Part shown: one piece after another, positions 21,168 to 24,030 of the stretch
Layout: every line of letters starts with the position of its first letter
How positions within the stretch are numbered: position 1 is the stretch's first letter
Source of the DNA: Alphaproteobacteria bacterium
GTDB lineage: Bacteria > Pseudomonadota > Alphaproteobacteria > GCA-2731375
NCBI GenBank assembly: GCA_965226475.1
Contig: CBDDDJ010000004.1
Coordinates: forward strand, 1,821,963-1,885,962
DNA length: 64,000 nt
Direction of reading: 5' to 3'
Notes under the pieces: generated by a model
Told to the model about the DNA's origin: nothing
What the model saw: only the letters and a program-made list of their open reading frames with translations
Databases searched by the model: none
Position numbers and translations under genes: made by a program

Positions 21168-21902
21168 TCAGTGTTCCGCTTTCATGCTGGCCTTGCGTTC
21201 GTACATTTCCCGGTCCGCCGCCGCCAGCGTGTCCGTCACGGATTCGCCGCCCTGGAAGGTGGTGATGCCGTAGGCCAGCCGAAGGGGCAGCTGCGTCCCC
21301 TCCCAGGAAACAGGTTCGTTCTCGATCGCCTCGCCCAATTGGACCGCCTTTTCGCGCGCGCCCTGCCTATCCGTTTGCGAGAGAATGACGCCAAATTCGT
21401 CCCCGCCGAGACGCCCCACGACATCCGATTCCCGAACCCGTTCCAGCAGTATGCTCGCGACATGCAACAACGCCTTGTCGCCCGCGGCATGCCCGTAATT
21501 ATCGTTGATCGACTTGAAACCGTTGACGTCGAAATAGATCAGGCTCGAGGGAGTCTGATACCTTTCGGCAAAAGAAATGGCGCGGGTCAGTTCGCGAACG
21601 AAGGCGCGCCGGTTGGCGATCGGCGCCAACGTGTCGAGATCGGCGAGTTTCTCCATCTGGTTCAGGCGTTCGTGCGTGCGGTCCAGTTCACGCCGCAGCG
21701 TTTTCACCTCCTGCATCAAGACCATGATCGCCTCGCGCACCTTGGGCGTTAGTTCCGCCTCCGGAACGCCCAGGATGGTCGCGCTGTCCGCTGGCGCGCG
21801 CGTGGTCGACGCCTCGGTGGATTGATAGGCCCGCGCGGCGTCCCGGCTGCCGACGCGGGTCTGCGCGGGCCTACCGACAGGTTTGTTGTCGCCGATTTTC
21901 AT
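21168..21902 (-). CDS. GGDEF-domain diguanylate cyclase with an N-terminal coiled-coil
   Basis: MKIGDNKPVG... ...YFDVNGFKSINDNYGHAAGDKALLHV...RLGGDEFGVIL... The longer 335-aa ORF has an implausible N-terminal extension. Confidence 0.8.
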   Translation of the reverse strand: MKIGDNKPVGRPAQTRVGSRDAARAYQSTEASTTRAPADSATILGVPEAELTPKVREAIMVLMQEVKTLRRELDRTHERLNQMEKLADLDTLAPIANRRAFVRELTRAISFAERYQTPSSLIYFDVNGFKSINDNYGHAAGDKALLHVASILLERVRESDVVGRLGGDEFGVILSQTDRQGAREKAVQLGEAIENEPVSWEGTQLPLRLAYGITTFQGGESVTDTLAAADREMYERKASMKAEH

Positions 21903-22041
21903 TGCGTGCCTACCCAAACGACCCCAAACCAACAAGGCGCAAAAGGCCTCTCGCGGGTGACCGAACTTCGGGATTCGTGCCGCGGCACCGGCACCCGGAC
22001 CAGTGACGCAGGAAAAGATTACCAAAACTTCTAGAATCGTT

Positions 22042-22056
22042 GAACGAGAATCGCGG
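22042..22056. repeat. Left copy of a perfect 15-bp direct repeat (gaacgagaatcgcgg) flanking the IS element. It is a probable target-site duplication
   Basis: It is identical to 23463-23477 and is flush with both inverted-repeat ends. Confidence 0.7.
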
Positions 22057-22071
22057 TGTCGAGAACATTTC

Positions 22072-22110
22072 GAATTGACCGCTTTATGTACCATATGAAT
22101 TGACCGCTTT
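22072..22110. repeat. Two subterminal direct repeats GAATTGACCGCTTT inside the left IR region
   Basis: The copies are at 22072-22085 and 22097-22110. Confidence 0.6.
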
Positions 22111-22126
22111 TGTTGTGGTTGTTGGG

Positions 22127-22178
22127 CCTGTGGATAAGTGGGGAACCCGCCGTGGCGGGTTGTCCACTTATCCACAGG
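22127..22178. repeat. 52-bp near-perfect palindrome inside the IS, downstream of the transposase stop
   Basis: The arms are cctgtggataagtggggaacccgcc and its reverse complement, matching at 23 of 25 positions. The centre is aacccgcc-gt-ggcgggtt. Confidence 0.7.
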
Positions 22179-22199
22179 CCGGGCGCGCGTCGAAGCGGT

Positions 22200-23381
22200 T
22201 CACTTGGCCGCTCTGCTGTTCTTGGTTTCGTCGAGGACGGTGCCGTCGGCCTGATATCGGGCCAGCCGGCGCGGGCCGTGGAAGACCGCCAGGGTGCCGC
22301 CGGAGTATTCGTGGACCCGCACCGATGCCTTGACGTAATGGCGGCGGTGGCGATCCTCCGGGATCTGCAGCACCAGCCGCTTGTAGCGCACCGTGTTGTC
22401 GTTGCCGACGATCCGGTCCTCCTGGATGCACAGGATGTCGTCGAGCGATCCGGTGAAGGGGACAAAGGCCGAGCCCTCGGCTTCGGCCGGCACCGCGAAA
22501 CGGGCGTTGTGGCGGGGCAGATAAATCTCGCGCAGGAACGCGTTGGCCTCGGCCATCGTGGTGATGGCGGCCAAGCGCAGTTCCTGCGGCAGGCGATTCT
22601 GCAATGTCGCGAACATGCGCTCCGAGCGCCCCCGGGCCTCGGGGGAGTAGGCCGGGATCAGTTCGATGCCCAGCTGGCCCAGGGCTCGGCCCACCTGGGT
22701 CGGGTTGTTCTTGTCCACCTTGCCGCCGGCCTCGGGCGTGTGCCAGTAGTGCGAGGCCCGGTCGGCGTAGAGCGAGCAGAACAGCCCCCGGACCTCGATC
22801 ACCTCGCCCAGGGCCCGGAAGCTGCTCATGGTCCCCTCTTCGTCGACGAAGAAGGCCGAGTAGATCTCGCTGGTTGCGTCATCCATGGTGACGATCAGGT
22901 CCCACCACTGCCCGGGAACCCATTGGTGGGTCGAGCCGTCCTGGTGCAGCATCATGGCGGGCAGGGCGCGGCGCGGCCGCTTGCGCCGGTGCGCGCCTCG
23001 CCGCGGTGCCGGACGTTTGCGCCCGTGGGCCTGGAGCGTCAGGCGGACCCAGTTGTAGCTCCGCGTGAAGCCGTGCTCATCGAGCAGCTTCTCGTGGAAG
23101 TGCTTGGCCGTGAAGTCCCAGTAGCGCGTGTCGAACAACTCCAGAACCTCCATCACCGTGTCCACCGGCACCCGGTGCCCCGAGACCTTGCCCAGCCGGC
23201 GGTCATACAGACCCTCCGCGCCTTCCGCCTCAAAGCGACCCCGCCAGCGCCGGAACGTTCGCTCGCTCATCCCCAGGATCGACGCCGCCTCCGACTGGCT
23301 CAGTCGCCGCCGCTTCGCGCGCTCCAGAATCTCCTCGAACTTCATCTGCCGTAGTCCTTGCAACACCTCGGCCCGCTTCAT
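22200..23381 (-). CDS. DDE transposase of the ISNCY-family-like / IS481-like type
   Basis: 393 aa. It has an N-terminal HTH (SQSEAASILGMSERTFRRWRGRF) and a catalytic region (MLHQDGSTHQWVPGQWWDLIVTMDDATSEIYSAFFVDEEGTMSSFRALGEVIEVRGLFCSLYADRASHYW). Confidence 0.8.
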   Translation of the reverse strand: MKRAEVLQGLRQMKFEEILERAKRRRLSQSEAASILGMSERTFRRWRGRFEAEGAEGLYDRRLGKVSGHRVPVDTVMEVLELFDTRYWDFTAKHFHEKLLDEHGFTRSYNWVRLTLQAHGRKRPAPRRGAHRRKRPRRALPAMMLHQDGSTHQWVPGQWWDLIVTMDDATSEIYSAFFVDEEGTMSSFRALGEVIEVRGLFCSLYADRASHYWHTPEAGGKVDKNNPTQVGRALGQLGIELIPAYSPEARGRSERMFATLQNRLPQELRLAAITTMAEANAFLREIYLPRHNARFAVPAEAEGSAFVPFTGSLDDILCIQEDRIVGNDNTVRYKRLVLQIPEDRHRRHYVKASVRVHEYSGGTLAVFHGPRRLARYQADGTVLDETKNSRAAK

Positions 23382-23462
23382 CGCCGCCCTCCTCGAAGGC
23401 GACGTTCTAAACCGGACAGATCACATGGTACCTACGGCGGTCATATCGTGTGTTAGCGACAC

Positions 23463-23477
23463 GAACGAGAATCGCGG
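23463..23477. repeat. Right copy of the 15-bp direct repeat
   Basis: It is identical to 22042-22056. Confidence 0.7.
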
Positions 23478-23532
23478 GTGCCGGCTCGTCGATGTTCCTC
23501 TATAGTCGCCGGCCAGATTTCGGGAGGAGGGC

Positions 23533-24030
23533 ATGGAGAGTTCGACACCCCTGGTCGGCGTCATCATGGGCAGCCGCTCGGACTGGGAGTGCATGCGGCG
23601 CGCCTCCGAGGTGCTGGAGGAGCTTGGCGTGGCGCACGAATGCCGCGTGGTTTCGGCCCACCGGACGCCCGACCGTCTTTTCGACTACGCCAAGACGGCC
23701 GCCGGGCGGGGGCTTCGCGCTATTATCGCCGGCGCCGGCGGTGCCGCGCATCTTCCCGGCATGACCGCCTCGATGACGTCGCTCCCGGTGCTGGGCGTCC
23801 CGGTCGAAAGCCAGGCGCTCTCGGGCCTCGACAGTTTGCTGTCGATCGTGCAGATGCCGGCCGGCATTCCCGTCGCCACGCTCGCCATCGGGCCGGCGGG
23901 CGCCACCAACGCGGGCCTGCTCGCGGCCCAGATCGTCGCCCTGGAGGATTCGGCGGTGGCCTTCGCGCTCGCCGCCTGGCGCCAGCGGCTGACCGATCGG
24001 GTCCCGTTCTCCCCCGTCGACGCGGATTGA
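23533..24030 (+). CDS. purE: N5-carboxyaminoimidazole ribonucleotide mutase
   Basis: [47 protein letters not shown]...[14 protein letters not shown]. Confidence 0.9.

Follow-up and report, generated by a model that had tools for sequence, protein, structure and literature searches.

An intact insertion sequence (IS) of 1405 bp lies on the minus strand at positions 22057–23461 of a 64,000-nucleotide stretch of alphaproteobacterial DNA (contig CBDDDJ010000004.1 of assembly GCA_965226475.1), which is called the window below. Comparison of this IS with its relatives indicates that members of the group insert in one fixed orientation right upstream of the -35 box of ordinary sigma-70 promoters, and the window copy is predicted to sit on the promoter of purE in the position and orientation usual for its family. 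The association is strong, and on the sequence comparisons given below we assign this explanation as a whole a joint probability of about 0.8. Because the IS group appears to target promoters, we conclude that the position of this copy upstream of purE is not incidental. A preliminary description of the same DNA had already placed the insertion between purE and a GGDEF gene, just upstream of purE, which agrees with the detection of PF00731 at 23533 and of PF00990 from 21902 on the minus strand.

Insertion sites of the IS and of related elements, about 90 in number, were compared, and a sequence logo was built on 75 independent sites. The logo was read on the strand that leads away from the IS, starting at the cut on the side of the inverted repeat found at the upstream end of the transposase gene tnp (IRL; the repeat at the downstream end is termed IRR). 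At positions 0–4 of the IRL flank we observed T in 61 sites, T in 53, G in 68, A or C in 28 and 25, respectively, and C in 49. Further out, T is present at position 23 in 46 sites, A at position 24 in 56 and T at position 28 in 48. The logo reads TTGAC-N17-TAnnnT, directed outward from the IS, and matches the alphaproteobacterial sigma-70 consensus CTTGAC-N17-CTATAT, with the duplicated target sequence being the 16–17 bp just upstream of the -35 box.

The register of the -10 element is precise. A match to TATAAT of at least 4/6, with A2 and T6 required, starts at positions 22–24, with a spacer of 16–18 nt, in 35/75 sites as compared with 0–3/75 at twelve control offsets, and the full TAnnnT core is found in 41/75 sites as compared with 0–2 at nine control offsets. 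At sites with a poor -35 box the -10 element is still located at exactly the same distance from the cut. No comparable motif was observed in the IRR flank, in which reconstructed empty sites exhibit only a weak G at +3 (32/63 sites).

The neighboring genes exhibit the same polarity. At 24 of the 28 loci with gene calls, the window included, the gene that adjoins the IRL is directed away from the IS, while this is so at 15 of 25 loci on the IRR side, and three of the four exceptions to the orientation also lack the target motif. Neighbor orientation based on open reading frames (ORFs) at all sites (54/71 versus 47/71) is uninformative in GC-rich genomes, and we used the gene calls of the collection instead. 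Ribosomal protein genes (L20, L28, L33 and L35) and a cold-shock gene are among those whose promoters were targeted (loci L108, L109, L110 and L120–L122). Genes of these two kinds generally rank with the most highly expressed in bacteria. The motif is also present outside the window's own clade: in a Mesorhizobium-type clade with transposases 54–57% identical to that of the window, and in three clades at 41–44% identity, TTGAC is located 15–17 nt from the IRL, and the P0439 clade exhibits a clear TAnnnT as well.

Several observations weigh against promoter targeting. The -10 signal is weak in the P0494 clade, and two of the three sites of the P0453 clade are without the motif. In the window itself the -35 sequence GTGCCG matches TTGACA at only 3/6 positions, and a consensus scan of 21850–23600 returned no sigma-70 promoter under its own criteria. 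Furthermore, all of the sites are survivors in assembled genomes or metagenome-assembled genomes (MAGs), so that selection against intragenic insertions must add to the intergenic bias.

The purE promoter was assigned because of the family-wide target register. The predicted promoter, which would be the targeted site, covers 23478–23506 on the plus strand with its -35 at 23478–23483, a 17-nt spacer and the -10 sequence TATAGT at 23501–23506. It is followed by the ribosome-binding site GGGAGGAGGG at 23522–23531 and by the ATG of purE at 23533. The distance from the IS terminus to this ATG is 71 nt, or 55 nt if counted from the end of the duplication. The 16 bp that were duplicated directly precede the -35, so that the purE core promoter has probably been left intact, with native sequence kept to about -52 and only more distal elements displaced. 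All sequence farther upstream, among it the part of the intergenic region on the side of the divergent GGDEF gene, is separated from the promoter by the IS. A search for the empty purE/GGDEF intergenic site in Joint Genome Institute (JGI) metagenomes gave no matches.

The target duplication in the window was delimited with the aid of other copies, as the IS termini (TGTCG...CGACA) follow from 21 copies of this IS together with about 60 related elements. The 15-mer GAACGAGAATCGCGG is identical at 22042–22056 and 23463–23477 and has no further match in the 64 kb with up to two mismatches allowed. The preliminary description had these 15-mers abut both inverted repeats; the 15-mers are as described, but only the copy at the 22057 end is flush, with C23462 separating the other terminus from its 15-mer. 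The 15-mer is a genuine target duplication. The best interpretation of the window duplication is a length of 16 bp with a single mismatch (T22041 versus C23462), which fits the family range of 15–18 bp, with most sites at 16–17 bp, and would place the IRR-side copy at 22041–22056 and the IRL-side copy at 23462–23477, directly upstream of the predicted purE -35 box.

A genome scan yielded 80 loci with transposases that are 72–80% identical to that of the window. The exact window transposase was absent from the protein look-up, and the 99%-identical cluster members P0001, P0121 and P0122 were used instead. We found 20 further copies of the same IS in other contexts, with lengths of 1405–1406 bp and at least 99.6% identity; the 18 copies of exactly 1405 bp match the window copy at 1399–1401 of 1405 nt. 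Both the palindrome and the subterminal repeats that the preliminary description had pointed out are present in 20/20 of these copies, and the long duplication that it reported recurs at their sites with lengths of 15–18 bp. Duplications of 17 bp flank 33 of 64 independent sites of the group, and lengths of 16, 18 and 15 bp account for another 26, 4 and 1, respectively. The window IS is intact and probably active. The distant representative P0286 is known from a contig that consists of the IS only and has no flanks.

Some loci depart from the simple arrangement. Head-to-tail IS pairs one duplication length apart were observed at L080:1496-4338, at L034:2918-5740 and at L089/L090 (ERZ25074053 ctg469952), and each of these three tandem IS-duplication-IS arrays sits at a single motif. 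L080 contains three copies of one 17-mer (GTCAA-T-IS-T-IS-T), as would result from two successive insertions at one promoter site. The third duplication copy is missing in L034 and L089/L090, which suggests either a later rearrangement or an origin via a circle or dimer intermediate. At L028:2918-5562 matching IS ends are 2644 bp apart, about 1.2 kb above normal, with a 15-bp duplication preceded by GGTCAA; this locus looks like a single transposition unit and may be an IS copy with an internal insertion or passenger. In L094 the same IS (approximately 1420–2825) splits a CoA-transferase gene, PF02515 being present in either flank, and the promoter motif is lacking at this site, indicating that off-target insertions occur.

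The following mechanism would account for these sites. A TnsB/MuA-like DDE transposase would bind two ~12-bp sites per end, 25 bp apart, within inverted repeats of ~55 bp, and would cut at the TGT...ACA termini. The ends would then be joined to target positions that are staggered by 16–17 bp, with repair of the stagger leading to the long duplication. Insertion of the element and its relatives is not random: one cut falls at the upstream edge of the -35 hexamer and the other 16–17 bp further upstream, with IRL nearest the promoter and tnp directed away from it. In this scheme the transposase would recognize the promoter with RNA polymerase holoenzyme bound.

Given that the targeting is real, we favor recognition of a holoenzyme-bound promoter and give it about even odds, on four grounds. 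The cut is in register with the -35 as well as with the -10, the -10 box is kept at sites with a degenerate -35, and promoters of generally highly expressed genes recur as targets. The fourth ground is by analogy: in the sister subgroup ISAba32/ISAjo2 the IS inserts with IRL proximal and a single duplication length (5 bp) away from dif sites bound by XerC (PMC10132070; bioRxiv 10.1101/2022.12.17.520857). A point against holoenzyme recognition is that no transposase surface for contact with RNA polymerase is apparent. In a more general form, the long-duplication IS1202 subgroups might dock onto a DNA-bound host complex, which here would be the holoenzyme at a promoter, with one strand transfer abutting the sigma-bound -35 and the other one extra helical turn out. 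We regard this tentatively, as having somewhat less than an even chance. The duplication lengths of the family (5–6, 16–17 and 27–28 bp) step by ~11 bp or about one helical turn, which would fit a common geometry. On this model duplication lengths and the IRL-proximal orientation would both amount to a "protein-bound site plus n helical turns".

Alternatively, the transposase itself could read TTGAC in naked DNA, with the links to the -10 element and to gene orientation arising later by survival of harmless insertions. TTGAC is indeed the strongest part of the logo (G in 68/75 and C in 49/75 sites), the IRR repeats of the window's clade hold the same core (GAATTGACCGC) at 18 nt from the terminus, and the data consist entirely of survivor sites. 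However, the -10 core is exactly at position 23 in 41/75 sites and survival alone sets no nucleotide-exact distance. The -10 also stays in place where the -35 matches TTGAC at no more than 3/5 positions (L021, L027, L044, L058 and the window), and gene orientation is biased at 24/28 loci. Finally, clades whose repeats have a TGTCCGG core rather than TTGACC still target TTGAC. This last observation also weakens a "pseudo-end" idea that we considered, in which the same transposase domain reads TTGAC in the target and GAATTGACCGC in the IRR. We consider recognition of naked TTGAC unlikely, and recognition of the holoenzyme-bound promoter remains the explanation that we favor.

Promoter-directed insertion has been described in unrelated elements. 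TnGBS, the ISLre2 family and an ISKra4 group, which have Mutator-like transposases with a signature motif linked to promoter targeting, undergo oriented insertion 15–17 bp upstream of sigma-A -35 boxes (PMC3942029), and the proximal end of the IS described here is likewise 16–17 bp upstream of the -35. Unlike in those systems, the whole 16–17 bp interval is here the duplication, and one cut abuts the -35. The transposases are also unrelated (Mutator-like versus TnsB/MuA-like). Because the window transposase has no Mutator-type Pfam domain and its fold matches TnsB, IstA and MuA, the likeness to TnGBS/ISLre2 targeting is convergent and is one of behavior only.

Closer relatives offer a different comparison. 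The ISAba32/ISAjo2 subgroup of dif/pdif "hunters" has a transposase of the same family with 29–33% identity, and its insertions are similarly oriented with IRL proximal and the IS exactly one duplication length from a protein-binding site. In contrast to the IS in the window, the duplication of that subgroup is 5–6 bp, its target is the XerC side of XerCD sites, and its transposases have 441–467 aa with a C-terminal domain. The Tn7 TnsB, the TnsB of CRISPR-associated transposons (CAST), MuA and IS21 IstA are the best fold matches and share TGT/ACA termini and several subterminal repeats per end. Those systems use TnsC/D/E, MuB or IstB and generate duplications of 4–8 bp, whereas this IS has one protein and 16–17 bp.

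The family of the element was assigned from its transposase, which is encoded by tnp at 22200–23381 on the minus strand. [quoted passage not shown] It scores 349 bits with NF033594 (NCBIfam ISNCY_2, "ISNCY family transposase"; cut-off 250) and 98 bits with the IS481 model NF033577, below the cut-off of 224. A tblastn search of plasmids gave thousands of homologues with 29–33% identity over about 90% of the length, and these homologues, including those from Acinetobacter, are annotated as ISKpn21-family, ISLad2-family or ISNCY transposases. Genes annotated as ISKpn21- and ISLad2-family and Acinetobacter ISNCY transposases matched with 30–33% identity over 88–95% of the query (E 1e-31 to 1e-37). 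In an alignment with ISKpn21-family and Acinetobacter transposases D148, D167-D168, D207, E254 and Q261 (E+7) are invariant, and both the window protein and the sister-clade proteins carry GRSERMFATLQ. A DDE triad, two extra D residues between the first two D and a Q at E+7 constitute the family signature according to Harmer et al. (PMC10132070) and Siguier et al. (bioRxiv 10.1101/2022.12.17.520857), who gave such elements the rank of the IS1202 family. By these sequence marks the element is a member of the IS1202 family.

Within the family the element fits the ISTde1 subgroup by its TGT...ACA ends, short transposase and 15–18 bp duplications. The ISTde1 subgroup has been described as having TGT termini, 15–17 bp direct repeats and a short transposase (394 aa in ISTde1) without the C-terminal domain and with a 5–10 aa indel between the second D and E (PMC10132070; bioRxiv 10.1101/2022.12.17.520857). 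Shared features include a length of ~1.3–1.4 kb, a transposase of ~393 aa that appears to lack the C-terminal domain, the DDE residues with two extra D and a Q at E+7, and a second internal copy of the inner inverted repeat near each end. The window protein ends where the ISKpn21 and Acinetobacter proteins run on for 50–75 residues. Its D207–E254 length differs by only 2–3 aa in the alignment with the ISKpn21 and Acinetobacter proteins. The likeness is to the description of ISTde1 and not to its sequence, and differences are the promoter-shaped target observed here and a hairpin after the tnp stop codon that is unmentioned in PMC10132070 and bioRxiv 10.1101/2022.12.17.520857. Megablast of the IS against plasmids gave no match, which fits the statement in the Siguier preprint that subgroup members are known from only one plasmid (bioRxiv 10.1101/2022.12.17.520857).

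Structural comparison agrees with this assignment. An AlphaFold2 model of the transposase (predicted local distance difference test, pLDDT, 75.5) has as its top Foldseek matches in the PDB the structures of TnsB (8rdu, 8aa5, 7svw), IstA (8q4d, 8b4h), Tn7 TnsB (7pik, 9bw1) and MuA (4fcy), with E values of 1e-12 to 1e-6. The TM-scores are modest (0.3–0.46) because the domains are flexibly placed. These matches agree with the TnsB-like architecture of HTH domains, an RNase H fold and a beta-barrel that has been reported for the IS1202 family. A PDB sequence search with the transposase returned nothing significant.

The preliminary description had termed the element ISNCY/IS481-like. The ISNCY half of this label stands, while with IS481 there is resemblance only. 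The IS481 family likewise has TGT termini, an N-terminal HTH with a leucine-zipper-like region and a DDE core, and in addition to the NF033577 score there is a weak match to PF13011 (E = 7e-4), so that the long repeat could in principle be the top of the 4–15 bp duplication range of that family. We find IS481 membership exceedingly improbable, as NF033577 falls far under its cut-off whereas ISNCY_2 passes, the E+7 residue is Q rather than K/R and is accompanied by the extra DD motif as in IS1202-family members, duplications of 16–17 bp flank nearly all copies, and the target behavior is different.

The IS1202 family was defined in 2023 partly by its unusual duplication lengths, and one of its subgroups was shown to hunt XerCD/dif sites (PMC10132070). 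The same study states of the long-duplication subgroups that "targets were not found", as independent insertions were lacking (PMC10132070). The element described here is a new member of a known family, and the promoter-directed, oriented targeting of its subgroup appears to be undescribed. We found no target for long-duplication IS1202 subgroups in PMC10132070, in bioRxiv 10.1101/2022.12.17.520857 or by full-text searches; a point against novelty is that ISfinder/TnPedia or the journal version of the Siguier study may record one. Multi-copy MAGs supply the independent insertions and offer an answer on the target of the ISTde1-like group. They also provide a second, evolutionarily independent case of sigma-70 promoter targeting beside TnGBS/ISLre2, and a comparison of the two could show which feature of the promoter complex is recognized by transposases. 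Such targeting would explain IS copies that stand before housekeeping genes (purE, ribosomal protein genes) without destroying them, which matters for annotation and for the prediction of insertion effects. The element is also a test case for how a single-protein TnsB-like transposase sets a 16–17 bp stagger. If docking onto a host complex is true, then such single-protein elements would be natural integrators at active promoters that are programmable by host factor.

The ends of the element have the layout that the proposed mechanism would call for. The inverted repeats were previously given as 42 bp and are instead ~55 bp long with a 1-nt indel; the terminal 11-mer (TGTCGnnAACA) matches at 9/11 positions, and the arms 22071–22110 and 23409–23448 are 75% complementary. 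Each end is composed of the terminal 11-mer and two ~12-bp units that are 25 bp apart. In the IRR (22057–22111, minus strand) the terminal 11-mer TGTCGAGAACA is accompanied by 14-bp direct repeats, GAATTGACCGCTTT, at 22072–22085 and 22097–22110. These two copies are just where the preliminary description had them, 25 bp apart, and they form part of the inverted repeat and each contain the unit GAATTGACCGC. In the IRL (23408–23461, minus strand) the terminal sequence TGTCGCTAACA is accompanied by degenerate units, GATATGACCGCC (23447–23436) and GATCTGTCCGG (23422–23412), which also have a 25-bp spacing.

This unit layout recurs in clades with transposases that are 54–57% and 41–44% identical, although the sequences of the units differ. 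Harmer et al. likened the second copy of the inner inverted repeat in the IS1202 family to Tn7 TnsB sites (PMC10132070), and by this comparison the ~12-bp units are probably transposase-binding sites. The proposal that the subterminal repeats are candidate transposase sites agrees with their being kept at both ends in clades down to 41% identity and with PMC10132070. A 1372-bp variant in MAG CBDFKF01, in which a 25-bp deletion has merged the two IRR units into one, is present at no fewer than eight sites (at least L039, L061, L063, L069 and L075–L078) with different duplications. This indicates that one IRR unit is enough for mobilization, at least with transposase in trans; full-length 1397-bp copies are present in the same genome. 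We also looked by eye for a junction promoter, comprised of an outward -35 in the IRR and an inward -10 in the IRL across the 16–17 bp, and found no convincing hexamers.

A long hairpin is located between tnp and the IRR repeats. It spans 22125–22180 on the minus strand, 19 nt past the tnp stop, with 27-nt arms at 22125–22151 and 22154–22180 that are 93% complementary (2 mismatches); the palindrome first noted at 22127–22178 is the core of this longer pairing. The 42 distinct variants of the window's clade share a similar outer stem but vary in the inner stem and loop; L021 and L055 differ over the entire sequence and yet retain a long hairpin. In an alignment of 18 sequences, 10/15 consensus pairs have changed on both sides. 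In addition, 94% of cells are paired as compared with 81% in shuffles, and 0/500 shuffles reach the observed covariation score.

The distribution of the hairpin is uneven. Two copies of the window's own clade (L004 and L012) have lost it, and it is missing from the Mesorhizobium-type and P0494 clades, where the flanking sequences CGCTTCGACGC and CAACAGAAGCGG are contiguous. The P0453 (L130–L133) and P0439 (L134–L143) clades, with transposases 41–44% identical to that of the window, carry long hairpins of unrelated sequence immediately behind the stop codon, for example CCCGTACGCCGTCGCCCTTCCCC...GGGAAGGGCGACGGCGTACGGG. The post-stop hairpin seems to have been gained and lost repeatedly at the same position. 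Since sister clades as well as L004 and L012 are without it, we take the hairpin to be a structure-conserved but clade-specific accessory that is dispensable for transposition. With regard to the earlier suggestion that the palindrome is a candidate regulatory or binding site, the covariation indicates that structure is conserved, but whole sister clades lack the palindrome.

Our best guess regarding its role is that of a transcript 3'-end or of an insulator element between tnp and the IRR sites. An intrinsic (Rho-independent) terminator was considered and rejected: there is no U-tract beyond the hairpin on the tnp strand (CCCAACAACCAC) or on the other strand (GGGCGCGCGTCG), and a terminator scan did not list the hairpin. 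Rfam returned only chance-level matches to miRNA hairpin models for 21900–23600. In the hairpins of L001–L104 the stem mismatches are nearly always A-C on the tnp strand, which equals G-U on the opposite strand, and minimum free energy folds of the 42 variants contain 141 G-U pairs on the antisense strand versus 4 on the sense strand. It may be the strand opposite tnp on which the hairpin functions, either in RNA or in single-stranded DNA, or the asymmetry may alternatively result from the C/A-rich composition of the tnp strand.

The symmetry of the palindrome could also be neutral, produced by template switching or quasi-palindrome correction during replication and without function for the IS. 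The missing hairpins in two clades and in L004 and L012, the wholly different sequences in L021, L055 and the P0453/P0439 clades, and the lack of a terminator U-tract are all consistent with such an origin. It is less easily reconciled with unrelated hairpins recurring in several clades at the same spot, directly behind the tnp stop and ahead of the IRR repeats, or with compensatory changes in 10/15 pairs and pairing in 94% of cells. The strand-asymmetric mismatches further hint at selection on one strand, though composition could cause them. A neutral, self-correcting palindrome stays a serious rival that we nevertheless doubt on balance, and we retain the structure-conserved accessory as the preferred reading.

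Another explanation is that the palindrome functions at the DNA level as a protein site, with inverted DnaA boxes (TTATCCACA in both arms) that tie the IS to replication. In the window TGTGGATAA and TTATCCACA, at 22130–22138 and 22167–22175, are perfect matches to the DnaA-box consensus, and the boxes are also present in the relatives L001, L027 and L039. However, most relatives carry TTGTCCACA/CTTCCCCACA or unrelated sequence (L011, L021, L024, L055) and yet keep the stem. As the pairing is conserved and the box is not, we rejected the DnaA box as a conserved feature; it is probably coincidental in the window copy, and a DnaA-based role is very unlikely.

The genes that flank the IS are purE (23533–24030, plus strand), which encodes 5-aminoimidazole ribonucleotide (AIR) carboxylase (Pfam PF00731, E = 5e-63), and on the IRR side a GGDEF diguanylate cyclase gene (21168–21902, minus strand; Pfam PF00990, E = 2e-37; taken from the ORF list), whose ATG is 154 nt from the IS terminus. 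An ORF on the plus strand from 24038 is read as purK from the ORF list only. Inside the IS, a 414-aa ORF at 22110–23354 on the plus strand runs antisense along the whole transposase gene. Its product would be of low complexity and rich in Arg, Gly and Ala, and it is almost certainly a by-product of the high G+C content and not a gene.

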